From positions 72,360 through 136,359 of the forward strand of contig URKJ01000001.1 in NCBI GenBank assembly GCA_900548385.1: a DNA stretch of 64,000 nt, in the 5' to 3' direction. The notes beneath the pieces are model-generated. The model worked only from the letters and a program-made list of their open reading frames with translations. It did not search any database and was not told the DNA's origin. Origin of the DNA: an uncultured bacterium. GTDB taxonomy: Bacteria; Verrucomicrobiota; Lentisphaeria; Victivallales; UBA1829. A program made the position numbers and the translations under genes. Position 1 is the stretch's first letter; each line of letters begins with the position of its first letter. This document shows positions 30,576-61,204 of this stretch, in pieces.

Positions 30576-31316
30576 ATGATCAAATGTCGGTTTACCATTC
30601 TGGAGCTCCTCGTCGTAATCGCCGTGATTTCCATTCTGGCGGCTCTGCTGCTGCCCGCTTTGAATTCGGCGCGGGAAACGGCGAGGGGGGCGCGATGCCT
30701 CAGCAACATCAAACAGGTCAATACCGCTCTGACTGCGTACACGGTTGATTTTACGTTTTATCCATGGCCGTTCCGGACTGCGGAGAATATCGGTATGGAA
30801 CAGCGGATCATCGAGGCCGGGTATATGAAACCGCTTCGCCGGGGAGCTCAGACCTACAAGGACCGTTTTGAGGTGCAGTGCGATTCCCTCCGGGATCTTG
30901 TCTGCGCGGAAGGTTCCACCTATCCCGTGAGTTCCTATATTCCGAATTACAGCAACACTTACGGAGGTGTGCTGACTGCCGGAAGTCATGGCATTACCGG
31001 AGACGAGGAGTATCCGGAACTGACACTTGCCAGACCGGAAAAGGTGAAAGCCCCGTCGCGGAAAGTCGTATTTGCGGAACGGAAAAATTCCGGCGGACAT
31101 CTTCATTATATTATGGATTGCCGGAATCTTTATGATCCATCCCATACGGGAAGCGAGGAAAGACTCGGTCCCGTCCACCGGCAGAATGCGTCGTTTGCTT
31201 TCGCTGACGGTCATGCCGCATCCTGGAACGTCGTTACGCAGTTGAGTCATGGCGGAGACGTGTACGGTTACGGACTCCGTCTGTGGAAAAAATATTTCAA
31301 CATCTCGGAACCTTGA
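30576..31316 (+). CDS. Prepilin-type N-terminal domain protein of the H-X9-DG family (DUF1559-like pseudopilin)
   Basis: [35 protein letters not shown]-terminus. C-terminal [12 protein letters not shown] (H-X9-DG). GGAGG RBS before ATG 30576. Confidence 0.87.
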
Positions 31317-31335
31317 TAACCGGAAGGAAAATGAA

Positions 31336-44277: not shown

Positions 44278-47200
44278 TTATTCCGGAATCCAGAATCCGA
44301 AATTGTGGCGGAACTGGTGATTGAATCTGGTTCCGCTCCAGGTTTTTTGAAGACGGCGCCTTTTGCCGTCGTTGTCGTTGACCGAAATATCAAACGATAC
44401 CGGAGTGCCCGGAGCCTGACGCAGTTCCCGCCACGGGATTTCCAGTACGGCGGCGTAACCGTTTTCCGTGTCCGTGAGTTTCCAGCGGATGGAGGAGAGG
44501 TCGACGTCGCCGCTTTTGTCCAGACGTGCCGGTTTGCCCTCCGCGCCGGCGGTCATATACAGCCGGAAGGTGTCTTTCCGGTATTCTTTCCGTTCCATAT
44601 CCGCGAGCGGGGCGCGGTCGAAATACAGCTCAATGCAGTCGCCGTTCCAGAATTCCGGAGGAGAATATCTGCCGCGTTTCACGTCGCGCACCTGAATGTT
44701 CAGCCGGAACATTTTACTGTCTCCGGAAGCCTGAAAGGATGCGGAAAACGGATCGTCGTTCTCCGCTTTTCCGGTAGTGACCTGCGTAATTTGCGCGGTT
44801 TCTCCGGAGCGCAGGAAACGTTGAGCTTCCACGGGAACGGAAACGGTCCGTGTGACTTTTCCGTCGTAGATCATCAGTTTGACCGTTCCGCCGGGCAGGA
44901 CGGAGCCTTTCGTTTCGACCGGGATCAGCAGAACGGCGGTTTTTCCCGCCGGAAGCCGCAGGGAGGCGGAGCCCGGTTTTGCCGCTTTTGCCGAGGGCGC
45001 GGAGAGCAGCCGTACTTTCAGTTCCTGTGCTTCCAGCGTGCTGCGGAATTCCAGCGCAAGGACCGGCTTTCCCTGTTCCGCGAACCAGCGGGCACGGGTG
45101 ATTTCATATCCGTTTTCCGGTACGATCCTGCTTTCATTCAGCATTTTCCGCAAGGCGTCGAGCCCCTGCCTGCCGCGGATATACATCGGGGTGTTGGTCA
45201 GCGGCATGGCGGGAACCGCTTTTACCGGGTTGCCGAATACGTCGAACAGGTCTACAGTTTGAGGATTGGAGAACGTGATTGAGAATTTCCGGTTCGGCGT
45301 GTAATTCCAGACCGCCGCCATCGGCTGCTTTCCGGGGATTGTGTACAGATATGCCGTGGTTCCGAGCGGCGTATTGAGTTTGCCTGCGGGAACCGCGCGT
45401 TCCATCAGACGGGCGAACGCATTGGCGGCAACGTAAATATCGGTGGGAATCAGGCGCCTCTGAACGCGTTCCCTGATATAGCCGTAACCGGGATTGCGGT
45501 CGCCCCGGTAGCTTGTTTCACAGGGCAGAAGCGTTTCCTGTTTCACTCCTTCCCCGAGGTCGAGCAGAACGCGGCGGATGAAACTTTGCGCGGAAACGAT
45601 TCCATTGGTTACGGCGTCTGCATTGTGCCGCTGCACCGTGTAATAAAGTTCCGTGTTCCAGAGCGGCAGACCTTTGCGGTATTTGGCGATGATCCGCTTG
45701 ATGTCCCGGACTGCCTCGTGTGCGGGATAAGGCGAATGTTCCTCGCGGGAAGAGTAGGGGTGAAAGGAAACGATGTCTGTGTACTGATAGCCGCCGAGTT
45801 TGCCGAACCGCTCCAGAAAATCTCCCATCTGCCCGCCGAGGTCGCCGGTGACGTTCGGGGCGATGACGCGGATCGCCGGGTCAATTTTCCGGCACTCTTC
45901 AAATGCGATCTTTGCAAGTTTGACATAATCCTCCGGCGAGGTCGTCAGGTTGGCTTCATTCAGGATTTCCCAGTACCGGATACGGCCTTTGAAATGGGAA
46001 ACCGTCGCGCGGACATAGTTCCGCCAGTCGTCAAGATTCGGCATGATCGCCGGTTTGCCGTGCATTTTAAAGGTGGAGCTCAGCGTGCCGCGCCGCTGTG
46101 CCCATTCCGGCAGATAACGTTCCAGCAGAACGTTGCCGAGAACACCGAGCAGAACATTGCCGTACCCGAGCCGCTGATTCACAAAACGGTCGGCGAGGCG
46201 GAAATCGAATTTCCCCTGTTCCGGCTCCACGGTCGCCCACTCGAAAATCCGGTATACACCGTTGCCGATCCGGTTGATCCGGTAGCCCTGATTGCGGTTG
46301 ATCCGGTGATAATCCGCTTCATCCGACTCCAGCAGCTGAAAGAACGCTTTTCCGCCGTTGATGTTCGGACAGCCGAAATGGAATCCCTCTTCGACTCCGA
46401 GTACAAAATCGCGGTCCGGGTGAAACGGTTCCGGCGTGTATTTGCCGGAGAACGCATAGAGAAACGGCAGCACCCGTTCCTGTTTGCCGTTGAGCATAAA
46501 AACCGCTTCCGTTGAGTATACGCCGTAAGGACGCATCGGAACGGTGAACGTTTTCGACGCTGTTCTGCCTGCCGGAACGGTCAGTTCCGCCGGACGTTCC
46601 GTCAGAGCTTTTCCGGTATAGTCGTCACGGTCGCGGAAAAGAAACTTCACGGTTCTGTCGTTCTTTCCGTAATTGATTCCGGTGAGGGTGAAGGTCAGCG
46701 GCTGTTCGCCGTCGATATGCAGATGGCGCGGAGCCGTGAGCGTGAATTCCATATCGCTTTTCAGCGAGAACGGCGTTGCCTGTGTGCCGGGTTCCACCTG
46801 AAGCGCGTCGAACCAGACGGTCGCATCGCTGTCTTCGCCCCACAGGAAATCAAGAAGGTACGATTTATGACCGTTCGGCGGCAGAAACGTGTAGGTATAG
46901 CGTTTCCAATCGGTCGAGAGCGTGACGGTTCGGGACGGATTGAACCAGTCCCGTGCGGCTCTGCCGTTCTTTTCCGCCGGGATGATGGAGATCGGCAGAT
47001 AGCGGAGTTTGACCGGCTTGGAACTTTTCGCATAGAAACTGAGCGTGTACGGCTTGCCGGGCGTTACGCTGAAGTCCGGTGAACGCAGAACGGCGGGAGT
47101 CGCGTCCGGATTGTCGAAACGCAGACTCTGTCTGCCGTGGACCCTGGTGTTTTGATCCGGTACGGGCGGCAGATATTTTACTTCTTCCGGCTGCATCGGG

Positions 47201-47319
47201 CGCGCGTAGCGCAGTTTTGCATAATCCGCGCCGCCGAGTTCAAAACTGGCGTCGGGAAGGAGGTTTCCCGCCGCGAGCAGTACGGGCAATGCAAGAAAGG
47301 GATAAAAAAGATGTTTCAT
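44278..47319 (-). CDS. Secreted multi-domain CAZyme-like protein (1013 aa): N-terminal CBM-like module, TIM-barrel GH-like core, C-terminal CBM9-like module
   Basis: Signal peptide MKHLFYPFLALPVLLAAGN. LLPDASFELGG...VWFDALQVEPG (CBM4_9-like). WEILNEANL (Asn-Glu acid/base style motif). C-terminus NGDCIELYFD...ISVNDNDG (CBM9-like). Confidence 0.8.
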   Translation of the reverse strand: MKHLFYPFLALPVLLAAGNLLPDASFELGGADYAKLRYARPMQPEEVKYLPPVPDQNTRVHGRQSLRFDNPDATPAVLRSPDFSVTPGKPYTLSFYAKSSKPVKLRYLPISIIPAEKNGRAARDWFNPSRTVTLSTDWKRYTYTFLPPNGHKSYLLDFLWGEDSDATVWFDALQVEPGTQATPFSLKSDMEFTLTAPRHLHIDGEQPLTFTLTGINYGKNDRTVKFLFRDRDDYTGKALTERPAELTVPAGRTASKTFTVPMRPYGVYSTEAVFMLNGKQERVLPFLYAFSGKYTPEPFHPDRDFVLGVEEGFHFGCPNINGGKAFFQLLESDEADYHRINRNQGYRINRIGNGVYRIFEWATVEPEQGKFDFRLADRFVNQRLGYGNVLLGVLGNVLLERYLPEWAQRRGTLSSTFKMHGKPAIMPNLDDWRNYVRATVSHFKGRIRYWEILNEANLTTSPEDYVKLAKIAFEECRKIDPAIRVIAPNVTGDLGGQMGDFLERFGKLGGYQYTDIVSFHPYSSREEHSPYPAHEAVRDIKRIIAKYRKGLPLWNTELYYTVQRHNADAVTNGIVSAQSFIRRVLLDLGEGVKQETLLPCETSYRGDRNPGYGYIRERVQRRLIPTDIYVAANAFARLMERAVPAGKLNTPLGTTAYLYTIPGKQPMAAVWNYTPNRKFSITFSNPQTVDLFDVFGNPVKAVPAMPLTNTPMYIRGRQGLDALRKMLNESRIVPENGYEITRARWFAEQGKPVLALEFRSTLEAQELKVRLLSAPSAKAAKPGSASLRLPAGKTAVLLIPVETKGSVLPGGTVKLMIYDGKVTRTVSVPVEAQRFLRSGETAQITQVTTGKAENDDPFSASFQASGDSKMFRLNIQVRDVKRGRYSPPEFWNGDCIELYFDRAPLADMERKEYRKDTFRLYMTAGAEGKPARLDKSGDVDLSSIRWKLTDTENGYAAVLEIPWRELRQAPGTPVSFDISVNDNDGKRRRLQKTWSGTRFNHQFRHNFGFWIPE

Positions 47320-49148: not shown

Positions 49149-50141
49149 ATGAAGGCAACGGTCCGGACGATTGCAAAAGAGGCGGGAGTTTCCCCGGCAA
49201 CGGTGTCGCGTGTATTCAGCGGAGCGGCGAAAGTGTCGCCGCAGGTTCGGCAGCGCGTATTGAACGCGGCGGCGCAGGCGGGATACGATTCCGGGGAGAA
49301 AAAGAATGTGGCGGTGATCATACCGGAAAACAGCGGGCTTTCCGGATACGGGGGGATGATTCTGGAATCCCTGTTCCTTGAGCTGAACAGTCACGGTTTC
49401 CGGGCGCTGGCGATCACTGCGGACGATATTGCGCTTCTGGATGAAACGGTTGTTGCCGGTGCGATTTCCGTGATCTACCGGCATGGACTGGAGAAGATGT
49501 GGAACAAGAAGCGCGCGGTTCCGTTGATCTGCATCAACAGCTATGGTTATCCGATCGACGGCGTTTACGAGGTGAGTTCCAATGATGGACAGGGAATCAC
49601 TGCCGCGATGAATTTGCTGTATGAGAAAGGACACCGCCGGATCGGGATGATGACGAATATTTTTGATATGTCGAATTCCCGCAATTCAGCGATCCGCGCC
49701 CGCACGTTTGACTCTTTTATCAAAAGCCATTCCGACTGTTCCGGCATTTTCCGCAACTGCATGTTGTCAGCCGGCTTTCTGGATACGGTTATGGAATTTG
49801 TCCGCTTCGGGGTGACGGCGATCATTGCCGCCGGGGAGAGTCTGGCGGCTCCGGTCAATCATATTCTGAGTACCTGCGGGATCCGCGTGCCGGAGGATAT
49901 TTCTCTGATCGGGTTTGAATCCCGGCATGTCTCCGAGTATCTCCATCCGCCGGTAACGTGTCTGGAACAGCGCATGGGACGGCTGGCGGAGCTGGCCGTG
50001 GAGCTGCTGGCGAAACAGCTCCGCGGCGAACACAATCTGAAAAACGAACGTGTCGATTACAATCTGTTCATTCGCGACAGTGTGGGTGCTCCTCCGCTTA
50101 TTCCAGTTTCAGAACGGTTATATTCCGGCTCCGGCTGCTGA
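49149..50141 (+). CDS. LacI family transcriptional regulator
   Basis: MKATVRTIAKEAGVSPATVSRVFSG HTH plus a periplasmic-binding-fold body. GGAG RBS before ATG 49149. Confidence 0.9.
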   Translation: MKATVRTIAKEAGVSPATVSRVFSGAAKVSPQVRQRVLNAAAQAGYDSGEKKNVAVIIPENSGLSGYGGMILESLFLELNSHGFRALAITADDIALLDETVVAGAISVIYRHGLEKMWNKKRAVPLICINSYGYPIDGVYEVSSNDGQGITAAMNLLYEKGHRRIGMMTNIFDMSNSRNSAIRARTFDSFIKSHSDCSGIFRNCMLSAGFLDTVMEFVRFGVTAIIAAGESLAAPVNHILSTCGIRVPEDISLIGFESRHVSEYLHPPVTCLEQRMGRLAELAVELLAKQLRGEHNLKNERVDYNLFIRDSVGAPPLIPVSERLYSGSGC

Positions 50142-51417
50142 GCTTGACGGTCCGGCGGAACGTTCCGGAGTCCGTGGAAATCTCCGCCTCGTAATCGCCG
50201 TAGAATCCATGGAACAGATTCATTGCGCCGTCGCGGTAATCCAGTTCGGTTTCGGTGTGCCATTCCTGCCTGATGAGCCGTTCCAGAGTTTTGAACGCGG
50301 GTTTCGGTGAAAAGTCGTAGTTGACGAGTCCGGCGCGGAGGCTGTTTTCGCCCTGTTCGCTGCCGAGCGGCGCATAAGCCGCCGTTCCGTCAACAAGATT
50401 CCACCAGGTGATCGCGTCGACTGCCGGATGACTGAACCACAGACGGTACAGTTTTTCCGTAACGAGTTCCTGAAATGCGTCGCCGTCGCCGAGATCCCGG
50501 CGGCTGATAATGCTGACTTCGGAAAAGTTGACGGGGATTCCGAGCTTGCCGTAAAGATCGAGACAGGCAAACAGGATGCGCGGGTTCATGAAACTGTTGT
50601 GCTCGCCGTGCAGCAGACTGTCGAACATGTGATATTGCAGACCGAGTCCGCCGACGCGGCAGCCGTGGTCCAGAAGCGAGCGGACCAGCAGATAAACGGG
50701 CGAATAGTCGCCGTGAAGATTCCACCAGCGGCGGTCGTCGTTGTACAACAGGGTCGAGGTCGGAAAATGACGGTCGGCGAGACGGAACGCTTCGTGGACG
50801 TGATTGTCCGGATACGCGGGCGTCAGTTTCCGGAACTGCGGTGCGCGCGATTGCGCTTCGTTCACACAGTCCCAGAGGAAAATCTTGTCACCGTACCGCT
50901 CCGCGATCTCCGCAAACCGGCGGTCGAGGCGCCGCATCAGTTCCGGCGTTGTTTCGGGAAGCCATGCCGGAGCGAAATTGTGCCAACAGAGCGGGTGCCC
51001 TTTCGGCGTGATGCCGTTGCGGCGACAGAAATCAAGGACGTCGTCGGTTGGCGGACGACGGTAGATCGGAACGCTTCCGGATTCAAAACGCAGTTTGCCG
51101 TCTTCCGGTTCCAGATCGGACCAGTAGAACGGAATGACCGCTTCGTTGAACAGGGAAGCGAACGTTTCTTCGTATTGGCGGTTCTGCTCCTCTTCCGGGA
51201 ACTGGCCGAGCATGAACGCATTGCAGCCGAACAGGAATTCATGCGTTTTCTGTTTCAGTCGGATTCGCGCATTTCCGACCGGTTTTCCGTCCGGAGTTTC
51301 CAGATGGAGCTGTCCGAATCCCTTGCGGTACATTTCGGTTCCCTGTCTGATACGGAATTCCACTTCCGCATCTTCCCGGAGCAGGTGTTTTGTGAGTGCG
51401 CTTGCGAGTTCGTTCAT
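50098..51417 (-). CDS. Glycoside hydrolase family 10-like protein (no signal peptide)
   Basis: LWDCVNEAQS (GH10 WDVVNE acid/base), GLGLQYHMF (GxQxH) and NFSEVSI (ITELD-equivalent nucleophile region). N-terminus MNELASALTKHLL is not signal-like. Confidence 0.75.
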   Translation of the reverse strand: MNELASALTKHLLREDAEVEFRIRQGTEMYRKGFGQLHLETPDGKPVGNARIRLKQKTHEFLFGCNAFMLGQFPEEEQNRQYEETFASLFNEAVIPFYWSDLEPEDGKLRFESGSVPIYRRPPTDDVLDFCRRNGITPKGHPLCWHNFAPAWLPETTPELMRRLDRRFAEIAERYGDKIFLWDCVNEAQSRAPQFRKLTPAYPDNHVHEAFRLADRHFPTSTLLYNDDRRWWNLHGDYSPVYLLVRSLLDHGCRVGGLGLQYHMFDSLLHGEHNSFMNPRILFACLDLYGKLGIPVNFSEVSIISRRDLGDGDAFQELVTEKLYRLWFSHPAVDAITWWNLVDGTAAYAPLGSEQGENSLRAGLVNYDFSPKPAFKTLERLIRQEWHTETELDYRDGAMNLFHGFYGDYEAEISTDSGTFRRTVKLSSRSRNITVLKLE

Positions 51418-51428
51418 GTCGTCATTCC

Positions 51429-52181
51429 TTATTTGATGAGTTGTTCTGCAACGCGGTCCAGCATCCGGTGCAGAGTGTCGATACGGTCCTGTGTGGCGCG
51501 TATTGCGGGGATGTAGCCGCCGAGAGCGCCGAGAAACGTTTCTTTCCCGGAAAACACGGGGCGCGCCGCCGCGTAAAATCCGCTCTCTTTTTCCGCTTTG
51601 ATGCAGAGATTCCGCTGCCGGATCTCCGCCAGCGCGCGATCAAGTCCTTTTTCAGAAAGTTCCGGCCACGCTTTGTGATTGACGGGATTTGCGGCAAGGA
51701 ACATCGCCCGTTCGTATTCCGGCGCAAACGCCAGCAGAACGCGGGTCGTGACACGGGAATAGTTGAACCGGCGTTCATTTTCGATCAGCGCCGGATTGAC
51801 CGAGATCACGGAGTTGCCGGAAACGGAGGCTATGATCATGCGTTCCCCGTTGAACAGCGTGGTGAGGATGAACGATTCTCCGGTCTGTTCCGCCGCGTCC
51901 CGGAGCAGGCGGACCGCCATCGGCCGGATCTGTCCGGCGAATGCCCCCGCTTTGGAAAGCATGGCGCATTTTTCGCCGGCGGCATAGATACCGCGTGCGC
52001 TCCGCCGGATATAGCCGCAGAATTCGAGCGTCTGCATCATATTCCGAGCCGTGGTTTTCCGCATTCCGAACCGTTCGGCGATTTCCGCCAGCCCCGTTCC
52101 TTCCGAGATCATGGAACATTCCAGAACGTATTCCAGAATCGCGAACGCGTTGGCAACGGATTGTATGGACGGTTTATTCAT
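51429..52181 (-). CDS. IclR family transcriptional regulator
   Basis: SVANAFAILEYVLE...GLAEIAERFGMRKTTARNMMQTLEFCGYIRR winged helix, plus an IclR effector domain. Confidence 0.85.
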   Translation of the reverse strand: MNKPSIQSVANAFAILEYVLECSMISEGTGLAEIAERFGMRKTTARNMMQTLEFCGYIRRSARGIYAAGEKCAMLSKAGAFAGQIRPMAVRLLRDAAEQTGESFILTTLFNGERMIIASVSGNSVISVNPALIENERRFNYSRVTTRVLLAFAPEYERAMFLAANPVNHKAWPELSEKGLDRALAEIRQRNLCIKAEKESGFYAAARPVFSGKETFLGALGGYIPAIRATQDRIDTLHRMLDRVAEQLIK

Positions 52182-52232: not shown

Positions 52233-52301
52233 CTGTTTTTCCGGTTGTCAAGAATTTTTTTCAAAAAAAGAGCGTTCCGGGGGCTTGACAAAACGGTGAT
52301 C
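52233..52301. repeat. Copy A of a ~68-nt intergenic element (inverted repeat TTGTCAAG ... CTTGACAA)
   Basis: CTGTTTTTCCGGTTGTCAAGAATTTTTTTCAAAAAAAGAGCGTTCCGGGGGCTTGACAAAACGGTGATC. Near-identical copy at 58323-58389 (differences: one T in each of two T-runs, one G/C). Confidence 0.85.
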
Positions 52302-52313
52302 TTGTTTTATAAT
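52285..52313 (+). promoter_or_regulatory. Consensus sigma70 promoter (TTGACA-17-TATAAT) for the GntR/LacI-hybrid regulator operon
   Basis: TTGACA 52285-52290, 17-nt spacer, TATAAT 52308-52313. The -35 box is the right arm of the repeated element. Confidence 0.7.
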
Positions 52314-52342
52314 ATAACCATTATACACCTTTATACATAATT

Positions 52343-53458
52343 TTGGAGGTTTTTGTTTTGGGAGAAGGATTGACCAAACAGGAGCGGATTTTTCAGACAC
52401 TGGTGCTGGAAATCGAAAAAGGGATCTGGCCTGTGGATTCACTGCTTCCTTCGGGTGCCAGGCTGGCGGAACGTTTTGATGTGGCTCCGCTGACGGTACG
52501 CAGGGTTCTTCTGGAATTGCAGAATCAGCATTATATCCGGACCGTGAACGGGGTCGGGAGTTTCGTCCTGTCGCGTCCGCAGGAGGACGAACCGAAAATT
52601 CTGGTGGTGACTACGCCGACTTTTACACAGGAAAGCTGTTTGCTGTATATCATTTCCGGAATCATGGAAAGCTGTCAGGAACGGAAAGTGAAGGTCGATT
52701 TTCTGCTGGAGAGTTTTCTGCGCGGCGACGACCGGATCGCTTTTGCCCGGAATTTGCGCAGAAAAAATTATCTGGGGGTGATTTTCACCCGCTGTCTTTT
52801 TGTCGGGGATGAACCGGAATTTGCGGCGCTCCGGGAACTGAATATTCCGGTTTTGCTGCCTCATGCGACACCGGAAGACAGGAAAATGACCGGTTTCGCC
52901 ACATTGTTTACAGATGAAGCCGCCGCATGGGAAGATGCTTTAGTTTATTTACGGGAGCTGGGACACCGGCGGATCGCACAGCTGATGCGTCCACTGCATA
53001 CCGGCAGATTCCGGTCGCGGACCTGGGTGCAGCATCAGAATCTGCTGAAAAAACTGGGACTGGATGCTTCTCCGGATCTGTTTTGCATCCTGAACGATTA
53101 CAATTCTCCGGATTTTGTTCCGCTGCTGACCGGATTGCTTCAGAAGCCGGAACGGCCTACGGCGATACTGGGCTTTTCGGACTTCTTTGCGCTTCGTGCC
53201 TGTGATGAATTGGCACGTCTGCGGATCGGGGTTCCGGACGAGCTGTCGGTGATGGGATTTTGCGGTTACCCAGGAGGCGAGTCCAGAGCGTGTCCGCTGT
53301 CCACAATGGATTTCATGTACGGCAGAATCGGGGATCAGGCTGTGCGGACTCTGCTCCATGCTTCGGAATGGTTCGGCGGCGGAAAAAAGGTGCCGCTGCT
53401 GAAAACTCCATACCGGCTGGTCGAACGGAGTACAACGGGTTTATGCCACGGAACGTGA
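52343..53458 (+). CDS. GntR-type HTH fused to LacI/periplasmic-binding-fold sensor (transcriptional regulator)
   Basis: IFQTLVLEIEKGIWPVDSLLPSGARLAERFDVAPLTVRRVLLELQNQHYIRTVNGVGSFV (GntR wHTH), followed by a sugar-binding-like domain (ILGFSDFFALRA). TTG start uncertain. Confidence 0.78.
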   Translation: MEVFVLGEGLTKQERIFQTLVLEIEKGIWPVDSLLPSGARLAERFDVAPLTVRRVLLELQNQHYIRTVNGVGSFVLSRPQEDEPKILVVTTPTFTQESCLLYIISGIMESCQERKVKVDFLLESFLRGDDRIAFARNLRRKNYLGVIFTRCLFVGDEPEFAALRELNIPVLLPHATPEDRKMTGFATLFTDEAAAWEDALVYLRELGHRRIAQLMRPLHTGRFRSRTWVQHQNLLKKLGLDASPDLFCILNDYNSPDFVPLLTGLLQKPERPTAILGFSDFFALRACDELARLRIGVPDELSVMGFCGYPGGESRACPLSTMDFMYGRIGDQAVRTLLHASEWFGGGKKVPLLKTPYRLVERSTTGLCHGT

Positions 53459-53529
53459 CTGCATGAAATGCTGATCGCAGAAACGAATTCGTATAAGAAA
53501 CGAAACATATGCAAAAGGAGATATGAATT

Positions 53530-54390
53530 ATGAAACGAAACTCATTCAAGGGCAGGCGGAGGCGAAAGAATGATCTTCCTCTGAAATTCCAGACTTACTT
53601 TTCCATGATAGAGCTTTTACTAGTTATTTCAATTATTGCAATATTGGCGTCTCTTCTGCTTCCCGTTCTGAACCGCGCCCGCGATTCCGCTCAGCAGTCC
53701 GCCTGCCGTTCCAACCTGAAACAGCTCGGCGCGGCGCTGGCCGGCTATACGGTTGATTCCGACGACTATTTTCATTTTTCCAAAACAGAGAGGAACAGTT
53801 CCTATCTGTACAAGACCTGGACGATGCTGTATGTTCAGAATGCCTATACTTCGGCAAAGCTGTTTCTGTGCGGAAGCCGCATCCCGGACAGTGAAACAAA
53901 GAGAAATTACAGGACGCGTTTAAAGACTTTCACCGCGACGACGGACAAGGGGTGGCCATGGCATTTTCCTGATTACGGTTACAATCATCTGCTGGGGAGC
54001 GATCATGCCGGAGTGCGCTGTTCACAAGGGCATACGGGGGTGCTGGATGCAGGGGTGAGAGTTGGACAGGTCCGGCGTCCATCGGGGATTCTGGCATTCG
54101 GAGAGTCACGCGAGGCGTTGACAGATGCAGCCCTTGCCAATCCTGCCGGTTATTTTATCGTTCATTCGAGATACAGTTTGAATACAAAATGCCATCATGG
54201 CTACACTTCCGGCAATCTGTTTCCCGTTCATGGCGTGATCTGCAATACGGTTTTCGTCGACGGACATACCGCTGCGTACCGGGCGCAGATTCCAGGTATT
54301 GAGGGAGGACGTTCCCTGTATGAGCAGCAGAGACTCGGCAACTGGTATATGGGAAAAACGGAAAACAACAGTTTTTATCCGTTGGAATAA
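53530..54390 (+). CDS. Prepilin-type N-terminal domain protein of the H-X9-DG family
   Basis: [31 protein letters not shown]-terminal [12 protein letters not shown]. Confidence 0.85.
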
Positions 54391-54435
54391 CAATAGATTT
54401 CATTCCGTAAGATAACCATTTGAAAGGAGAATTGT

Positions 54436-56958
54436 ATGAGAAAAAAAAGATGGGGGCACCTCTTTGTCCTATTTGGATTTCTGAGCGTGCTCACGGCGGC
54501 GGAGAAAGAGTTTGATACCGGGGATGCGGTCCGTGGATCGGCGCCTGGAAATCTTTTTCTGGAATCGGAAAAATTGCTGTTTTCGCTTCGTCTTCCGCCA
54601 GGGGAAACACTGTATACCGTGACCGACGTTTACGGAAAAGTTCATGCATCCGGGACTTGGATCGGCGCGGATACCGCCGAGCTGCCGCGTCTGCCGCGCG
54701 GGTTGTATGAGATTGTCCTGAACAATAAAAATGCGGTCTTTACCCGGAACGTCACGTTTTCCGTTCTGCCGCCGCCGGCAAAAGTCGAGGATACGGTGCA
54801 GATATTCGGGTTCGATTCGGCGATCGACTGCTCCGACGGGGCGGACAGCGGGAGCGCTGAACTCCGTATCCGTCCCTCGCGGGAATGTCTGCTTGCCGCC
54901 GCCGTCCGCACGGGAATGCGCACGGTCCGGGTGCGGACGGGATGGCGTCAGTTGGTGAAAGACCGGTATGATGTGCTGCATCTGAAAAGCAAGCGGGCGA
55001 TTGCCGAATTGATGAAATCATACGGCATTGATTCCGCGGGCTGTATTGAAGGACCTAAAAACGATCCCTGGCGGAGAAGCGGAACGAAAATACCGCGCCG
55101 CGCTCAGATGAATGATAAATTCACGTCTCCGGATGATCTGTTTGATGCTTACCGGTACTGTAAAACGCTTGCCGCGACGATCGGCGGTGACGCTCTCCGT
55201 TATTGTGAATACCTCAACGAGCCTGATCTCAAGGGAGATCCGACGTGGGAAGTCGCCGCTCATTTCAAAGCCGCAGCACTGGGATTCCGGGCGGGCGACC
55301 CGAAGATGCGTATTATGACGCCGAGTTTCTGTCAGGAGGATCCCGTGATGCTGGACATCTTTCTCGGCAGCGATACCCGGTATTATTTTGATGTGTTCAA
55401 TATGCACTGTTACTGGGATTTGCTGGCGCACGGACGCTATTTCGGTACATTCCGCGATGCCATGCGCCGTGCCGGATGCGGCGACCGTGCAATCTTCGTA
55501 TCCGAAAACGGCGACGGCATGACTGCGATGAAGAAGAATCCGCGTTTTTCCGTCCGCGCGAAAAAATACCGCGAACTCTCACGGAAACAGGAGTTCGCAC
55601 AGGCGGAATGGCTTGCCAAAACCAGCCTTTCCATGCAGCGGCTTGGAATCTCCGTCAATATGATTTTCTATCTGACAACCCGTTTCGAGGGGGAGGCTCT
55701 GGACTGGGGACACTTCCGGACCGACCATTCGGCGCGTCCGTCGTTGACGGTGCAGGCGAATCTCGCTCATCATCTCATGCCGTGCCGGTATCTGGGCGTG
55801 TATAATCCGGCTCCCGGATTGCGGGGGATGCTTTATGCCCGTCTGGACGGGCTTCAGACTCTGCTGTTTTGGTCGGAGAATGATTTTGACAAGAAGGGAA
55901 AGGTAAGCCACTATGTCATTCCTGCTCCGAAGAAGCTTCGCACGTTTTCCCTGCCGGCACCCGATGGGGACTATCCGTTGTATGATATGTATGGATCAAC
56001 GCGTCCGGCGGTCCGTGTGAGCAATGGTAGAGCGTCCGCGGAGGTGTCTTCCATGCCGACGATCCTGACCGGAGTTTCCGGGTTGTCGCCGCAGGAACCT
56101 GCGCCGCCGCGTCCGCGGTTCACTGCCGATACGGATCCGGCGCTTGATATGGGAATTGTTGCCCGGATCATTCCCGGAGACGGTCTGGAACCGGATTCCG
56201 CCGGACATTTTGCGGAGCAGACAAAAAAGCGTGCGCAGTGCCGGATTGAACTTTATAATTTCGACGACAAGCCGAAATCCGGAACTCTGACCCTCTCCGG
56301 CTGCCGGATCATCAATGCTCCGGGAAAAGTGACTTTGCCGCCGGAATCGGCGGTCATGCTGGCGTTCGAGGTCGAACCGGAACAGAAAGGGGACTTTCAG
56401 TCTGTTCTGGAAGTCGGCGGCAAATTCGGCGGCAAGCGCATATCGCGGGCGTTCATGCCTGTCCGGTATGTGTTTGATCCTGCGGCGTTTGATATGATCC
56501 CATGTCCGGAACTGCTGGTGCCGGAACGCTGGCGTCCGATCTCGTCCAGTCCGATGCGGATCTTTTCGCCGGAACCGGGTGTGATCGCATTCCGGGTTGA
56601 TAAATTTCTCAACAACAATCGCTGGACGGCTCCTTCCACACTGCTGAAACCGGGTGAGTTCAACCTGGCGGATACCATCGGCATTGCGTTTGAGACGAGG
56701 ACGCTGGGAAAGGTCGTGTCGCCGAATCGCAACGTGGCGCTGCTTCGTCAAAAGGTGAAAGAACAGGGGAATGCCCGTACTTCCCTCTATCGAATTCCGC
56801 AAAACCAGGAATGGCACGAGTGCCGGGTTTTCTGGAATGCGGACCGGAAATGGCTTGAAAAGACCACGCAGATTCGGTTCGGTGGCAGTTCCAGCAAAAG
56901 CGAGTGGGTCGAATTCCAATATCGGAATATCCGTTTCCTCAAATTGAAAGGAAAATAA
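54436..56958 (+). CDS. Secreted glycoside-hydrolase-like protein (840 aa; TIM-barrel-like core plus C-terminal beta-sandwich modules)
   Basis: Signal peptide MRKKRWGHLFVLFGFLSVLTAAE. CEYLNEPDL (Asn-Glu motif). FVSENGD candidate nucleophile region. C-terminal EFQYRNIRFLKL. Confidence 0.72.
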   Translation: MRKKRWGHLFVLFGFLSVLTAAEKEFDTGDAVRGSAPGNLFLESEKLLFSLRLPPGETLYTVTDVYGKVHASGTWIGADTAELPRLPRGLYEIVLNNKNAVFTRNVTFSVLPPPAKVEDTVQIFGFDSAIDCSDGADSGSAELRIRPSRECLLAAAVRTGMRTVRVRTGWRQLVKDRYDVLHLKSKRAIAELMKSYGIDSAGCIEGPKNDPWRRSGTKIPRRAQMNDKFTSPDDLFDAYRYCKTLAATIGGDALRYCEYLNEPDLKGDPTWEVAAHFKAAALGFRAGDPKMRIMTPSFCQEDPVMLDIFLGSDTRYYFDVFNMHCYWDLLAHGRYFGTFRDAMRRAGCGDRAIFVSENGDGMTAMKKNPRFSVRAKKYRELSRKQEFAQAEWLAKTSLSMQRLGISVNMIFYLTTRFEGEALDWGHFRTDHSARPSLTVQANLAHHLMPCRYLGVYNPAPGLRGMLYARLDGLQTLLFWSENDFDKKGKVSHYVIPAPKKLRTFSLPAPDGDYPLYDMYGSTRPAVRVSNGRASAEVSSMPTILTGVSGLSPQEPAPPRPRFTADTDPALDMGIVARIIPGDGLEPDSAGHFAEQTKKRAQCRIELYNFDDKPKSGTLTLSGCRIINAPGKVTLPPESAVMLAFEVEPEQKGDFQSVLEVGGKFGGKRISRAFMPVRYVFDPAAFDMIPCPELLVPERWRPISSSPMRIFSPEPGVIAFRVDKFLNNNRWTAPSTLLKPGEFNLADTIGIAFETRTLGKVVSPNRNVALLRQKVKEQGNARTSLYRIPQNQEWHECRVFWNADRKWLEKTTQIRFGGSSSKSEWVEFQYRNIRFLKLKGK

Positions 56959-56961
56959 AGA

Positions 56962-58281
56962 ATGCGGAAAATCGTTCAAATACTTGTCGGCATTGTCGTT
57001 CTTCTGACGGCTGTCGCGGAATCGGCGGAACCTGCGGACTGTTCTTTGCGTGACGGACTGCCGTTTTTTGTGGAAAAGCTCCGTAACGGAAAACCGGTGA
57101 CGGTTGTCTATTTCGGCGGCAGTATAACATATGACCGGCGTGGTTGGCGCGTGCTTGTTTCCGACTGGTTGAACCGTAAACATCCGAATGTGAAATTCCG
57201 TCATGTCAATGCCGCTGTCGGCGGGACTGGATCGGATGTCGGATTTTTCCGGCTGGAAAAAGACGTTCTGGCGCACAGTCCGGATCTGGTCTTTGTGGAG
57301 TTTGCGGTAAATGACCGCAACAAAGCGGCTCTCTATACACAGCGCTGCATGGAGGGGATCGTCCGGAAGATCCGGAGTCGTCTGCCGAATTGTGATATCT
57401 GTTTTGTCTATACTGCCACGGCGCAGGATTTGAAGAATTTTGCCGGCGGAACCTGGATGAGATCCGTTGAAGCGATGGAAAAGGTTGCGGAACATTACCG
57501 TCTGCCGAGTGTGTTCCTGGCTGCCGATGCGCTGCGGCTGTACAAAAAGGGAAAATTGCGGCTTCAAACGGATTCCCGGCTGGAATTGCGTCGGGGCGAT
57601 GGAAAACGGTTAGGTCTGAATCTGATGGAGACCAACGGGGCTGAATTCGGCATTGCCCTGCCGGTGCGGGTTGACAGGGAAGGGTGTATGGTTTTCAGCC
57701 GGGACGGCGTGCATCCTCTTTTTGATACGGGACATCAGCTGTATTTCAACGTTCTCCGTCGTGCGCTGTCAGCGCTTCCGCCGCAATCTTCCGCTCCCCG
57801 GTCTCTTCCGGAACCGCTGGATGAGGACAACCTTGCAGCAATGAAAACAGTGCTTCCCGATCCGCGGAATATTACCGGTGGCATTGCGGAAAAACTGTCG
57901 GAACGTTCCGTTCCCGGACGCATTTATCAGAATGAAATATGGAAACTGCCGGCAGGAAGCGAAATGCTGCTGGAGTTCAACGGCTCCATGCTGCTGTTGA
58001 ATACTCTGCGCGGTCCTGATTGCGGTTGGGTGGAGTTTTCTGTGGATGGCGGCAAGCCTGTGCGCGTTCTCAACTTCACACCGATTTCCTCCGGTTATAC
58101 TCCGTCGAATATCATGCTCCCGGCGGGAACTGCCGGACGTCATCAGCTGAGACTCCGGGTATTGAATGAGAGTGTAAACAAGAAAAAGATTCTTCGTCCC
58201 AACCTCCGATCCAGCATGGACAAGACTCCGGAACGGTTCCGGGAAACAAATTTTTATCTGCGTTTTATTCTAGTCCGCTGA
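56962..58281 (+). CDS. SGNH/GDSL-type hydrolase (esterase) with C-terminal beta-sandwich domain
   Basis: Signal peptide. Block I VVYFGGSITYD, FVEFAVNDRN, block V SRDGVHP. Confidence 0.82.
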   Translation: MRKIVQILVGIVVLLTAVAESAEPADCSLRDGLPFFVEKLRNGKPVTVVYFGGSITYDRRGWRVLVSDWLNRKHPNVKFRHVNAAVGGTGSDVGFFRLEKDVLAHSPDLVFVEFAVNDRNKAALYTQRCMEGIVRKIRSRLPNCDICFVYTATAQDLKNFAGGTWMRSVEAMEKVAEHYRLPSVFLAADALRLYKKGKLRLQTDSRLELRRGDGKRLGLNLMETNGAEFGIALPVRVDREGCMVFSRDGVHPLFDTGHQLYFNVLRRALSALPPQSSAPRSLPEPLDEDNLAAMKTVLPDPRNITGGIAEKLSERSVPGRIYQNEIWKLPAGSEMLLEFNGSMLLLNTLRGPDCGWVEFSVDGGKPVRVLNFTPISSGYTPSNIMLPAGTAGRHQLRLRVLNESVNKKKILRPNLRSSMDKTPERFRETNFYLRFILVR

Positions 58282-58287
58282 AAAACA

Positions 58288-58322
58288 CTCCGCCGGATGA
58301 TCCTGTCCGGCGGAGCGTTTTC
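58288..58322 (+). terminator. Rho-independent terminator after the SGNH gene
   Basis: CTCCGCCGGA (58288-58297) pairs with TCCGGCGGAG (58306-58315), followed by CGTTTTCCTGTTTT. Confidence 0.7.
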
Positions 58323-58389
58323 CTGTTTTCCGCTTGTCAAGAATTTTTTCAAAAAAAGAGCGTTCCGGGGGCTTGACAAAACGGTGATC
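58323..58389. repeat. Copy B of the ~68-nt intergenic element (inverted repeat TTGTCAAG ... CTTGACAA)
   Basis: CTGTTTTCCGCTTGTCAAGAATTTTTTCAAAAAAAGAGCGTTCCGGGGGCTTGACAAAACGGTGATC. See copy A at 52233-52301. Confidence 0.85.
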
Positions 58390-58549
58390 CGGCAAATTTG
58401 GCACACACAAGCAGTGTTTTAATTAATTCGCTGTTTTGTCGTTTCTCATTTGAATTTTTCATCGTTGAGCAATATTGTACTTCCTGATTGAAAGCTGCAA
58501 ATCATTTGGTTTCTGATTAATGGAAAGCAACACAGGGAGATTCCGTTTT

Positions 58550-61204
58550 ATGACTGATATCAGAAATACACCGCCGCCGTTTCCGCAGGGCGAACCGCGA
58601 TTCGTTGAAGCATTGCGCAGAAAACCGGAGTTCCGTCCGTACTGGAACCGGAACCTGGAACCTCGGAAAGACGAGGCGGATTTCCGCAAAGGGCTTGATT
58701 TCCGCGCGGAATTTCCCGATCCGGAAGAACTGCTCGTCACCGCAACGGAGGAAATGCTCCGTTTTCTTCGGGAAGCCGATATTTTCGTTCCCGGTGCAAC
58801 GTCGATCATTACACGCAAAGCCGGGAATCTCGAAGGGGAAAGTTTCCGCATCGTCGTCGAACGGGATCAAATCACTATTGAAGCCGGTGATACCGAAGGA
58901 ATCCGCCGCGGAGTTTACTACTTGGAGGATCTTCTCGCTGGAAGCCGCGCCCCTTTTCTGAAACTTGGAGAAACCCGTCGTGATCCGTGGCTGAAAAACC
59001 GCATTTCCCGCTGTTTCTTCGGTCCGATCAAACGCCCGCCGTTCAACCGCGACGAACTGATGGATGAAATCGACTATTATCCGGAAGAGTACCTGAACCG
59101 TCTTGCCAGGGAAGGGGTCAACGGCTTGTGGCTGACGATTGTTTTCCGGGAAATCTGCACGACATCTTTTTATCCCCGCAACCCGGATGCGGAAAGGCGT
59201 CTCGAAAAACTTCGCCGCTCCGTCAGGAAATGCCGACGCTACGGAATTAAAATATGGGTTTTCTGCATTGAGCCTGCCTGCTGGGGGGCAGCCAATCCCT
59301 GTCCGGAAGGGCATCCGGAACTCAAAGGGCCTCCTTCCTATGTCGGGCCGAGTTTCTGCCCGGATTCGGACGCGGCAAAACAATATTTATACGAATGCAC
59401 AAACAGTCTTTTTGCCGCGGTTCCGGATCTCGGCGGGCTCATCACAATCTCTCACGGGGAGCGTCCGACCTCCTGTTTGAGCACGCTTTCGGTTTATGGT
59501 CACAAGAAAAATCCATGCGAAGGCAAGTGTGATCTTTCCATCGGGGAAATCCTGAGCAGGGTTCTGCTTCCCATGGCGGACGGTATGCATGCGGCAAATC
59601 CGAACGCCGAACTCATCAGCTGGCTTTACATGCCTTACCGCGATCAGCTCTCCGGCTGGATTTATGAAATGCCCGAACGGCTTACAAAGGACGTAATTCT
59701 CGCTTTCAATTTTGAATCGGGATGCAACAAGGAACAGCTTGGTAAAGTGCGGAGCGGCGGTGATTACTGGCTCTCATGCGTCGGACCGAGCGATCGTTTC
59801 GGACGCATGGCGGCGGCAGCGCGCGGCAGGTGCGAAATGGCGGCAAAACTGCAGGTCTGCTGTTCCCACGAAGTCGCCACGATCCCGTTCCTTCCCGTTC
59901 CCGGACTCATTTACCGGAAATACAGAGAAATGAAAAAACTCGGCGTCAGGCACGTCATTCAATGCTGGTATTTCGGAAACTATCCCGGACTCATGAACAA
60001 GGCGGCGGGACTTCTCGCGTTTGAAGATTTCACGCGCCCGGAAAAGGAATTTCTTGAAGAACTCGCATTCAGCGAATGGGGTGCACATGCGGAGGACATG
60101 GCTGAAATATGGAACGACTTCGCGGAGGCTTACTCCAATTATCCGCTTGATATCCAGTTCCAGTATTACGGACCGATGCACGACGGTCCGGTCTGGCCCC
60201 TGCATTTGAAACAGGTTATGAAACAGCTTCCCCGGACATGGAAGCCGGACTATGCTCCCGCAGGCGATGCCGTCGGTGAATGCATGTTCAACCATGAACT
60301 TCCGGAGACCATGCTTCTTACGCGGAAAATTGCGGACGGCTGGCACAAAGGCATGGAAAAACTCAATACATTCGTCCGTGAATATCTGGATCGTTCCGAA
60401 CGGATGCTTGACGCTTCGCTGTATGAGGCGCTTGACATTCAGTTCCGTTCCGGAGCCAATATTCTCGAATTTTTCACGCTCAGAAACCGTCTGATGGATT
60501 CGCCCCCGGATGCGGAAAAACTTCTGGACCGGCTGGAAGCCATCGTGAAAGAGGAGATCGAAAACAGCCTCCGTCTGGCGGAGCTCTGCGAGGCGGATTC
60601 CCGTCTCGGCTATCATTCCGAGGCGGAAGTCTATAAATATTTTCCGGAAAAACTGCGCTGGCGCGTTGCGGTTCTGCAGGATATTCTTGCGGAAGATTTT
60701 GCCGGATGCCGGATCAAACTCCGGGAAGGAGCTCCGGCAGGGGACTTCCTGCGGAAGCAGGAGAAAATTCATACGGCAGGTTCCGTTTACCATGCCGGCA
60801 ATATCTCATGGAGTATGACGGCGGATATTGAAAATGTCGTATTTGATATTGAATGCCGCCGTAATGACAGCCGCGGAGAAAATGGAAAGATTTCCTTGTT
60901 TCTCATGGATCGCAAAGGGGAACGTACTCCCTGGCGTATTTGCATTGATAATAATGACACCGTGTTTGGTTCCTGGGACGCGGTGCATGTCGAATCGAAA
61001 GAGGAGAACGGCTGCAGAAAAATCGCAGCGGTGTTCCCGCGTGCAATGATCGGCAACAATGAATTCTATTTCGGAATTGAGCATTGCTGGAACGATGCGC
61101 AGGGAGTTCATTCGGAACATTATCCGGCGGGAAATTATCCGGATGAACAGCGTCTGAATCTCGGAACGTTCTCCCCGGACCGGATGGTTCTGGTCCGGAT
61201 TTAA
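58550..61204 (+). CDS. Large glycoside-hydrolase-like protein without signal peptide (884 aa), with C-terminal CBM9-like module
   Basis: N-terminal alpha/beta module ending DTEGIRRGVYYLEDLL (like the N-domains of GH20/GH67-type enzymes). TIM-barrel-like GVNGLWLTIVFRE...IKIWVFCIEP. C-terminus FYFGIEHCWND...RLNLGTFSPDRMVLV. Start ATG 58550 or 58520. Confidence 0.65.
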   Translation: MTDIRNTPPPFPQGEPRFVEALRRKPEFRPYWNRNLEPRKDEADFRKGLDFRAEFPDPEELLVTATEEMLRFLREADIFVPGATSIITRKAGNLEGESFRIVVERDQITIEAGDTEGIRRGVYYLEDLLAGSRAPFLKLGETRRDPWLKNRISRCFFGPIKRPPFNRDELMDEIDYYPEEYLNRLAREGVNGLWLTIVFREICTTSFYPRNPDAERRLEKLRRSVRKCRRYGIKIWVFCIEPACWGAANPCPEGHPELKGPPSYVGPSFCPDSDAAKQYLYECTNSLFAAVPDLGGLITISHGERPTSCLSTLSVYGHKKNPCEGKCDLSIGEILSRVLLPMADGMHAANPNAELISWLYMPYRDQLSGWIYEMPERLTKDVILAFNFESGCNKEQLGKVRSGGDYWLSCVGPSDRFGRMAAAARGRCEMAAKLQVCCSHEVATIPFLPVPGLIYRKYREMKKLGVRHVIQCWYFGNYPGLMNKAAGLLAFEDFTRPEKEFLEELAFSEWGAHAEDMAEIWNDFAEAYSNYPLDIQFQYYGPMHDGPVWPLHLKQVMKQLPRTWKPDYAPAGDAVGECMFNHELPETMLLTRKIADGWHKGMEKLNTFVREYLDRSERMLDASLYEALDIQFRSGANILEFFTLRNRLMDSPPDAEKLLDRLEAIVKEEIENSLRLAELCEADSRLGYHSEAEVYKYFPEKLRWRVAVLQDILAEDFAGCRIKLREGAPAGDFLRKQEKIHTAGSVYHAGNISWSMTADIENVVFDIECRRNDSRGENGKISLFLMDRKGERTPWRICIDNNDTVFGSWDAVHVESKEENGCRKIAAVFPRAMIGNNEFYFGIEHCWNDAQGVHSEHYPAGNYPDEQRLNLGTFSPDRMVLVRI

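Follow-up and report, generated by a model that had tools for sequence, protein, structure and literature searches.

A predicted sugar-regulated operon of an uncultured Victivallales bacterium joins a pilin-like H-X9-DG protein to a GH39-like glycosidase and a CE17-like esterase

Why does the gene for a pilin-like protein stand between a sugar-sensing regulator and two exported carbohydrate-active enzymes, away from any pilus or secretion machinery? The question is raised by a cassette of four genes in a stretch of 64,000 nucleotides (nt) from an uncultured bacterium of the order Victivallales (assembly GCA_900548385.1, contig URKJ01000001.1, positions 72,360 to 136,359 of the forward strand), which we call the window. 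The four genes, all on the plus strand, encode a regulator, a prepilin-like protein with an H-X9-DG motif, a large protein of 840 amino acids (aa) and an SGNH esterase. The layout of the cassette strongly supports a single sugar-regulated transcription unit, and the genome (4.5 Mb, 3329 genes, 99% complete) contains roughly ninety units of this kind. Both enzymes and the regulator add new members to known kinds. For the recurrent design, in which a regulator goes with a private pilin and an exported enzyme, we found no description in the literature on H-X9-DG, DUF1559 and the prepilins of Lentisphaerae, Kiritimatiellales and Victivallales.

The transcription unit has clear candidate ends (Table 1). 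An initial annotation, made from the letters alone, had reported a perfect TTGACA-17-TATAAT promoter, and a motif scan found all 12 of 12 positions matching the sigma-70 consensus; by our estimate, about 0.003 exact matches are expected by chance per 8.5 kb. The promoter sits 45 nt 5' of the probable start codon of the regulator gene. The hairpin terminator described behind the esterase gene is likewise present. A repeat scan places its arms at 58282-58297 and 58306-58321 (94% complementary), and it is the sole strong terminator detected in the region. Between the four genes, a scan of the region revealed no convincing terminator or plus-strand promoter, and the gaps are 71 nt (regulator/pilin), 45 nt (pilin/glycosidase) and 3 nt (glycosidase/esterase). 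The open reading frames (ORFs) lie where they had been placed, with the esterase start 3 nt past the stop codon of its neighbour, and the quoted peptide motifs were all recovered from their translations: the prepilin N-terminus, H-X9-DG, CEYLNEPDL, FGGSIT and DGVHP. In a sister species (84% nucleotide identity), the order LacI, GH10, IclR, regulator, pilin, glycosidase and esterase is kept. In a more distant relative, whose glycosidase is 41% identical, the triplet of pilin, glycosidase and esterase is kept. We argue for a single transcript because one consensus promoter, one strong terminator and these gaps coincide with a gene order maintained in both relatives. The stretch that separates the -10 box from the regulator's ribosome-binding site contains the direct repeat TTATACA-CCT-TTATACA (52323-52339), a candidate operator for a regulator of this type. 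The spacer between the regulator and pilin genes and the first pilin codons hold two further sequence features (53483-53492 and 53494-53549), the perfect palindrome ACGAATTCGT and a motif, GAAACGAAAC, that occurs repeatedly.

The regulator is, by its domain matches, an AraR-type chimera. A GntR winged helix-turn-helix (PF00392, residues 13-75, 34.5 bits against a cut-off of 27) is joined to a LacI/GalR-type sugar-binding domain (PF13377, Peripla_BP_3, residues 202-365, 59.3 bits against a cut-off of 26.5), so that the fusion proposed in the initial annotation is recovered with both halves above their cut-offs. The NCBIfam matches are of the HutC/TreR type at the N-terminus and of the CytR/LacI/RbsR type at the C-terminus. 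Translation more probably begins at an internal TTG codon, giving 366 aa, since GGAGG lies 8 nt upstream of this codon and the sister-species gene is called from the same position. The regulator is 93% identical to the sister-species copy, with a ratio of nonsynonymous to synonymous substitution rates (dN/dS) of 0.09. A local iterative search found 63 AraR-type hybrids in the genome, 41 of which adjoin a pilin-like gene.

The 840-aa protein is nearly invisible to the curated models. No Pfam model exceeds its cut-off, the sole match being PF00150 (glycoside hydrolase family 5, GH5; 19.6 against 23.5 bits), with no match to PF01229; NCBIfam gave nothing, nor did the PDB when searched with the single sequence. 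A word-indexed protein search returned only the protein itself, a relative at 88% and the relative at 41%. An exhaustive HMMER search, in turn, collected a family of 488 clusters, most of them with the full build of 800-1000 aa. In 83 aligned homologs, R165, N261, E262, H324, Y326 and E357 are invariant, and this set of residues is, as read from the alignment, the signature of clan GH-A. The family profile matches GH39 structures in the PDB (5JVK, E 1.6e-31; PslG, E 1e-16) and places E262 on the WNEP motif and E357 on the TE motif of PslG. These glutamates are E139 and E250 of the PslG chain, which we take to be E165 and E276 in full-length numbering. In the cassette gene, the N-E-P motif with E262 is encoded at 55216-55224 and E357 at 55504-55506.

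A structure predicted by AlphaFold2 (AF2) from the single sequence was unusable (pLDDT 32) and was replaced by an alignment-based model with a pLDDT of 89.6 and a pTM of 0.92. The model contains an N-terminal beta-sandwich (residues ~24-115), a (beta/alpha)8 barrel (~120-455) and three further beta-sandwich domains. The best Foldseek matches were 5JVK (E 1e-18, TM 0.71) and PslG (TM 0.70-0.72); other GH-A families and the GH39 xylosidases ranked lower. The invariant residues, the GH39 profile matches with their aligned glutamates, and the confident model with its structural matches together strongly support the assignment of a predicted Sec-exported, five-domain GH39-like retaining glycosidase of clan GH-A, belonging to an under-annotated subfamily. 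The assignment of E262 as acid/base, following strand 4, and of E357 as nucleophile, following strand 7, made by alignment, is strongly supported as well. The GH fold and the pair of catalytic glutamates, whose absence would have spoken against the GH-like label given at first, were both found. A profile of the catalytic domain detects 59 paralogs in this genome (E < 1e-5), and the large enzymes of two other cassettes, numbered 1 and 2, are among them.

The fourth gene leads to a better-characterized enzyme. Its product matches Lipase_GDSL_2 (PF13472) above the cut-off with 45.3 bits, and Ser54, Asp248 and His251 are intact, in line with the SGNH esterase named initially. The nearest PDB relative of the single sequence is 6HFZ/6HH9 (E 4e-14), the two-domain acetyl-mannan esterase RiCEX of Roseburia intestinalis, later placed in carbohydrate esterase family 17 as RiCE17 (10.1101/788067). 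A profile built from 40 full-length homologs, chosen from more than 2500 hits mostly in bacteria of the Planctomycetes, Verrucomicrobia and Chlamydiae (PVC) group, aligns both domains of 6HFZ (E 6e-40; second stretch, residues 188-353, E 8e-08). S54, G88, N117, D248 and H251 of the esterase correspond to S41, G81, N110, D190 and H193 of 6HFZ, and these catalytic and oxyanion residues are invariant or nearly so in the 40 homologs. It is thus strongly supported that the gene encodes a Sec-exported O-acetyl esterase of the CE17-like type, predicted to consist of an SGNH domain and a C-terminal, CBM35-like beta-sandwich lid. Relative to the family profile, E324-T325-W326 in the lid of 6HFZ belong to an insertion. 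Since the stacking Trp326 is not conserved, the mannan specificity of RiCEX is not transferred to the cassette enzyme. The pairing of a glycoside hydrolase with an esterase had been taken to indicate a decorated glycan, and this is reasonable given that the esterase is of a carbohydrate-esterase type. Two neighbours point to xylan, namely a signal-less GH10 enzyme and the enzyme of cassette 2, which combines GH10 with a carbohydrate-binding module (CBM). We infer that the substrate is an O-acetylated plant-type heteroglycan.

Table 1. Features of the cassette and of its surroundings, in window coordinates
Feature	Position	Strand	Remark
Sigma-70-type promoter, TTGACA-17-TATAAT	52285-52313	+	
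AraR-type regulator ORF	52343-53458	+	from the ORF list; probable true start TTG 52358
H-X9-DG prepilin-like gene	53530-54390	+	286 aa
GH39-like glycosidase gene	54436-56958	+	840 aa
SGNH CE17-like esterase gene	56962-58281	+	439 aa
Intrinsic terminator hairpin	58282-58321	+	stem 58288-58315, 12 pairs, 8 G-C; T-rich tail
65-bp module, copy A	52237-52301	+	T7-C-A7 tract, inverted repeat TTGTCAAG...CTTGACAA, -35 box
65-bp module, copy B	58326-58389	+	-35 box, no usable -10 (ATTTGG); just past the terminator
Protein with CBM9-like module (example)	44278-47319	-	
Protein with CBM9-like module (example)	31249-35361	+	

With the regulator and both enzymes assigned, the pilin-like protein becomes the centre of the question. 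It is built from a basic leader of 23 residues, a hydrophobic alpha1 helix that begins with F24 (+1) and E28 (+5), and a head of ~220 aa, and it carries the C-terminal motif H234-X9-D244-G245-H246. The prepilin-type motif F/[ST]/[LM]/I/E at +1 to +5, followed by the hydrophobic helix, is present from residue 24, as is H-X9-DG. The protein does not reach the Pfam and NCBIfam thresholds for DUF1559 (PF07596, 13.8 bits against 23.3), N_methyl (Pfam, E 0.31) and GspG, it is not among the TIGR04294 or PF07596 matches of the genome at E <= 0.001, and it lacks Gly at -1. Its N-terminus resembles GspG, PilA and ComGC over the alpha1 helix only and with scores under the cut-offs, and a single-sequence search matches this helix to pilins in the PDB. 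A profile of 28 paralogs also matches PDB pilins over residues 1-58 only, and the head has no relative in the PDB that is detectable by sequence. The tie to the H-X9-DG family runs through paralogs only, by BLAST (E 1e-9) and by jackhmmer, which connects the protein with 213 of them. In the alignment of 28 paralogs, F1, E5, two Cys and the H...D-G-H motif are invariant at an overall identity of 27%.

The residue at -1 is Tyr (codon 53596-53598), likewise in the sister species. Across 211 prepilin-like paralogs, Gly stands at this position in 15 (7%) and Arg or Lys in 95 (45%). A canonical-looking pseudopilin encoded beside an operon for a secretin and an ATPase elsewhere in the genome (C33:38780-39316) has Gly at -1. 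Gly(-1) was considered as a marker of true pilins linked to machinery and was rejected, as machinery is found within 15 kb of 2 of the 15 Gly(-1) genes and of 17 of the 196 others. The pilin gene itself is functional, judging from a dN/dS of 0.15 against the sister species, which indicates purifying selection and lies inside the range of its enzyme neighbours (glycosidase, 0.11; esterase, 0.18). Diversifying selection on the head was found to be unsupported: the head has a dN/dS of 0.15, the leader with the helix one of 0.14.

The arrangement recurs throughout the genome. Pilin-like genes account for 211 of the 3329 genes. When only strict H-X9-DG genes are counted, 94 of 107 have a same-strand gene at most 200 nt downstream, and 80 of these downstream genes encode a signal-peptide-like start. 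A pilin gene lies immediately upstream of 31 of the 59 GH-A-like enzymes, compared with 180 of 3329 for all genes, a ten-fold enrichment. Outside this genome, the glycosidase family is present in 36 of 151 genomes searched among relatives in the class. In a relative at 33% glycosidase identity, an AraR-type regulator, an H-X9-DG protein and the glycosidase homolog are followed by a GH36 gene, and another homolog has a GH78 gene after it. A CBM9-like module was also observed in 56 proteins, at the extreme C-terminus in 35, and for 39 of the 56 the gene run holds a pilin-like gene upstream. Two examples from the 56 lie in the window (Table 1). A shared C-terminal sorting module of this kind was rejected for the cassette, where the 840-aa protein gave no match to the corresponding hidden Markov model and an hhalign probability of 3%. 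Many large proteins encoded directly after pilin genes share a stretch of approximately 'D..A.DG.GGWTDQG.NDLR' followed by a TIM-barrel-like region (for example C22:11162-14401 and C3:20402-23428); they look like a further expanded paralog family.

What might such a protein do in a glycan operon? The genome holds pilus and secretion machinery, with 3 A24 peptidase homologs, 13 secretin hits, 14 T2SSE hits and 6 PilT-family ATPases over the cut-off, the last in three tandem pairs. None of it is near the cassette. The nearest secretin hits are ~80 kb away, which confirms the statement that the pilin-like gene stands apart from secretion machinery. No TonB-dependent receptor (PF00593) was found in the genome in a search in which controls did match, and SBP_bac_1 gave only 9 hits. 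Of 121 sampled genomes of the phylum, 75 have TonB-dependent receptors, but no listed genome from the genus, family or order of this bacterium has any. The cassette itself has no gene for a transporter or binding protein. In Planctomycetes, pili-like fibres bind gold-labelled dextran, and dextran enters the periplasm (PMC5394234).

Our preferred reading, which we hold tentatively and at somewhat less than even confidence, is that the cassette is a self-contained sugar-responsive operon directed at an O-acetylated glycan, in which the pilin is a glycan-capture subunit at the cell surface. The glycosidase would be blocked by acetyl groups, which the esterase would strip off; a released sugar would bind the regulator and lift repression, possibly exerted at TTATACA-CCT-TTATACA. 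The H-X9-DG protein would be a type IV pilin-like subunit whose near-invariant alpha1 helix plugs into shared machinery encoded elsewhere, that is, the three A24 peptidases, ~10 secretins, PilB-like ATPases and the six PilT-family ATPases. Its operon-specific head may then supply substrate capture, as SusD-type or solute-binding proteins do elsewhere, either by holding the target glycan at the cell surface or by passing it inward for the co-expressed enzymes. We prefer a role in glycan capture because the cassette has no other binding or transport component and the order has no TonB-dependent receptors, and because retraction ATPases are present and dextran-binding fibres exist in Planctomycetes.

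Several observations weigh against this reading. With Tyr rather than Gly at -1, cleavage by a classical prepilin peptidase is doubtful. The pilin head has almost no relatives, only 2 clusters (its own and that of the sister species) among 5.8 billion proteins. In the relative L001, the pilin encoded beside the orthologous pair of glycosidase and esterase is not detectably orthologous to that of the cassette and is not among the top matches; a non-orthologous pilin beside orthologous enzymes weakens any model of a fixed partnership. Together with the near-orphan head, it fits gene swapping better than a fixed glycan- or enzyme-specific partnership. A pilin motif is found within 1.5 kb upstream in only 6 of 19 glycosidase loci, including that of the window, and in none outside the order. 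Finally, the clues to the substrate diverge, with two GH10 neighbours suggesting xylan and the nearest characterized esterase suggesting mannan, though without its Trp326.

A far broader version of glycan capture can be drawn for this order, with its lack of TonB-dependent receptors, and we consider it unlikely. Each of the ~200 H-X9-DG proteins would be specific for a glycan, exchangeable with the others, and a subunit or tip of retractile type IV-like fibres that catch polysaccharide and draw it through secretins to periplasmic enzymes. They would thereby functionally replace import by SusC/SusD and also account for the identity of the dextran-binding fibres of Planctomycetes, and recombination at shared promoter modules of ~50-180 bp would let their cassettes be gained, lost and swapped.

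An alternative that we judge nearly as likely as glycan capture, although its probability is rather low in itself, is that the protein serves export or tethering. The H-X9-DG protein would then be a pseudopilin in the style of type II secretion (T2S) that drives or targets both Sec-exported enzymes through an outer-membrane secretin, or anchors them on the surface. The resemblance of its N-terminus to GspG, PilA and ComGC is in keeping with such a role, and the genes that follow pilin genes overwhelmingly encode large signal-peptide proteins. Many of these have CBM-like modules, as extracellular enzymes do (the 39 of 56 CBM9-like proteins downstream of a pilin belong here), and secretins and GspE-like ATPases are plentiful. 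To our knowledge, however, no cargo-specific pseudopilins occur in characterized type II systems, and the mature protein, at ~240 aa, is much longer than GspG at ~135 aa. The distance to the machinery and the absence of Gly at -1 are equally unfavourable to export, and the non-orthologous pilin beside the orthologous enzyme pair of L001 argues against a conserved interface between pilin and enzymes.

The missing Gly also keeps a third model alive, to which we assign a distinctly small chance. The protein may be an uncut bitopic protein of the inner membrane whose periplasmic domain acts as a scaffold, a chaperone or a hand-over point of oligosaccharides for periplasmic enzymes. Tyr at -1 is shared by the cassette and the sister species, Gly is rare and Arg or Lys common at this position among the paralogs, and a basic leader ahead of a hydrophobic helix is the classic build of a signal anchor. 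The two enzymes have Sec-type signal peptides only, for which the periplasm is the default location. In contrast, the invariance of F+1 and E+5 among paralogs that share ~27% identity would be expected only if a cleaved N-terminus were used in filament assembly, and the three A24 peptidase homologs could have an altered specificity.

The surroundings of the cassette indicate how it may have been assembled. Two copies of a 65-bp module, A and B (Table 1), bracket it; they are identical at 63 of 65 positions and are the sole two copies in the genome. The sister species also holds both copies (L002:4804-4868 and 10917-10955), and within each species the copies share species-specific substitutions. 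Synteny with the sister species stops at 58382, inside copy B. There, copy B has a perfect -10 box and drives another cassette, of a GntR regulator, a 253-aa pilin and a GH42 enzyme. Genome-wide, low-copy intergenic direct-repeat pairs spaced 1.5-20 kb apart bracket a pilin-containing unit in 11 of 12 cases and mostly represent promoter regions. The probability of this pattern is ~3e-5 by a hand estimate that counts 9 of 10 independent loci against a background of ~0.25. We read the modules as shared promoter regions that may also give the homology for gain, loss and exchange of cassettes; alternatively, they may be a shared operator. That the pilin is a mere passenger, placed by cassette duplication or recombination at the promoter modules without a functional tie to the enzymes (as a sugar-inducible pilin that varies the cell surface, for example), is very improbable: the bracketing modules that end synteny, the 11 of 12 repeat pairs and the exchangeable heads beside orthologous enzyme pairs would suit it, but the ten-fold enrichment upstream of GH-A enzymes, the fixed order of regulator, pilin and enzyme, purifying selection like that on the neighbours and recurrence beside glycosidase homologs of only 33-41% identity all stand against it.

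Further features were observed around the modules. On the minus strand, the IclR regulator and the signal-less GH10 enzyme (50098-52181) form a divergent pair with its own promoter, which matches the consensus at 11 of 12 positions (52251-52224) and has as its -35 box the left inverted-repeat arm of the 65-bp module. After copy B, a plus-strand gene (58520-61204) encodes an 894-aa protein with no signal peptide and no Pfam, NCBIfam or PDB sequence match. The T7-C-A7 tract was rejected as a cassette-specific signal, being a generic intergenic element upstream of promoters, with 73 overlapping pattern hits at ~35 sites. Lastly, ATCGGCTAAAAAATCTAGTCCACATTTTTTTCAAAAAAA or its reverse complement was seen at at least 8 contig ends (C21:1-60, C41:1-60, C60:1-60 and C70:1-60, and the ends of C22, C23, C34 and C47). 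It probably represents the border of a multi-copy element at which the assembly breaks.

The cassette matters beyond this genome since the DUF1559/H-X9-DG proteins, with 211 copies here, are among the largest paralog families of the PVC group. Planctopirus limnophila has 68 copies, two of them essential, and their function is recorded as unknown (PMC10632474). With one regulator, one promoter and two fold-assigned enzymes with named catalytic residues, the cassette offers a small, clean case in which the role of an H-X9-DG pilin can be addressed at the bench. The analysis also flags two under-annotated groups of enzymes, the five-domain GH39-related family, which has no curated model for its 488 clusters, and the CE17-like esterases found across the PVC group with their more than 2500 hits.

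Each component can be set beside a known counterpart. AraR of Bacillus subtilis is a chimera of a GntR winged helix-turn-helix and a LacI/GalR-type effector domain. The cassette regulator shares this two-domain build and, presumably, the control of glycan-utilization genes; it differs in being the first gene of its presumed target operon and in having 63 paralogs in one genome. The glycosidase resembles BcGH39 of Bacteroides cellulosilyticus (5JVK) and PslG of Pseudomonas aeruginosa (5BX9) in its barrel and beta-sandwich, the N-E-P acid/base and the T-E nucleophile. However, it is only 14-17% identical to them and has one extra N-terminal and two extra C-terminal beta-sandwiches. The esterase has the SGNH and lid build of RiCE17/RiCEX with the Ser/Asp/His and the Gly/Asn oxyanion residues conserved. 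It differs by ~58 extra residues inserted between blocks III and V and by its signal peptide, RiCEX being active after uptake.

The pilin-like protein has two sets of counterparts. With the H-X9-DG/DUF1559 family of the PVC group (TIGR04294; PF07596, 'SBP_bac_10'), it shares the prepilin N-terminus, a mature protein of ~240 aa, H-X9-DG-H and massive paralogy, although the cassette copy stays under the PF07596 cut-off, has Tyr at -1 and is tied to a context of regulator, pilin and exported carbohydrate-active enzymes. With the T2S pseudopilins GspG-K and the type IV pilins PilA and ComGC, it shares an alpha1 helix with F+1 and E+5. Unlike these, it is encoded outside a machinery operon, has no Gly at -1 and belongs to a set of hundreds of copies rather than about five.

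At the level of the locus, the closest likeness is to the SusC/SusD-type polysaccharide utilization loci of Bacteroidota. Both designs consist of many compact, substrate-dedicated loci with a sugar-sensing regulator, exported enzymes and one locus-specific non-catalytic protein. In the cassette, however, there is no SusC/SusD pair, and the non-catalytic protein is type IV pilin-like. The regulator is a cytoplasmic AraR-type protein instead of a hybrid two-component sensor or an extracytoplasmic function (ECF) sigma/anti-sigma sensor. Should the pilin turn out to capture or import glycan, or to export the enzymes, such cassettes would represent a third general design of glycan loci, next to those of Bacteroidota (Sus-like systems) and of Gram-positive bacteria (ABC-transporter loci).

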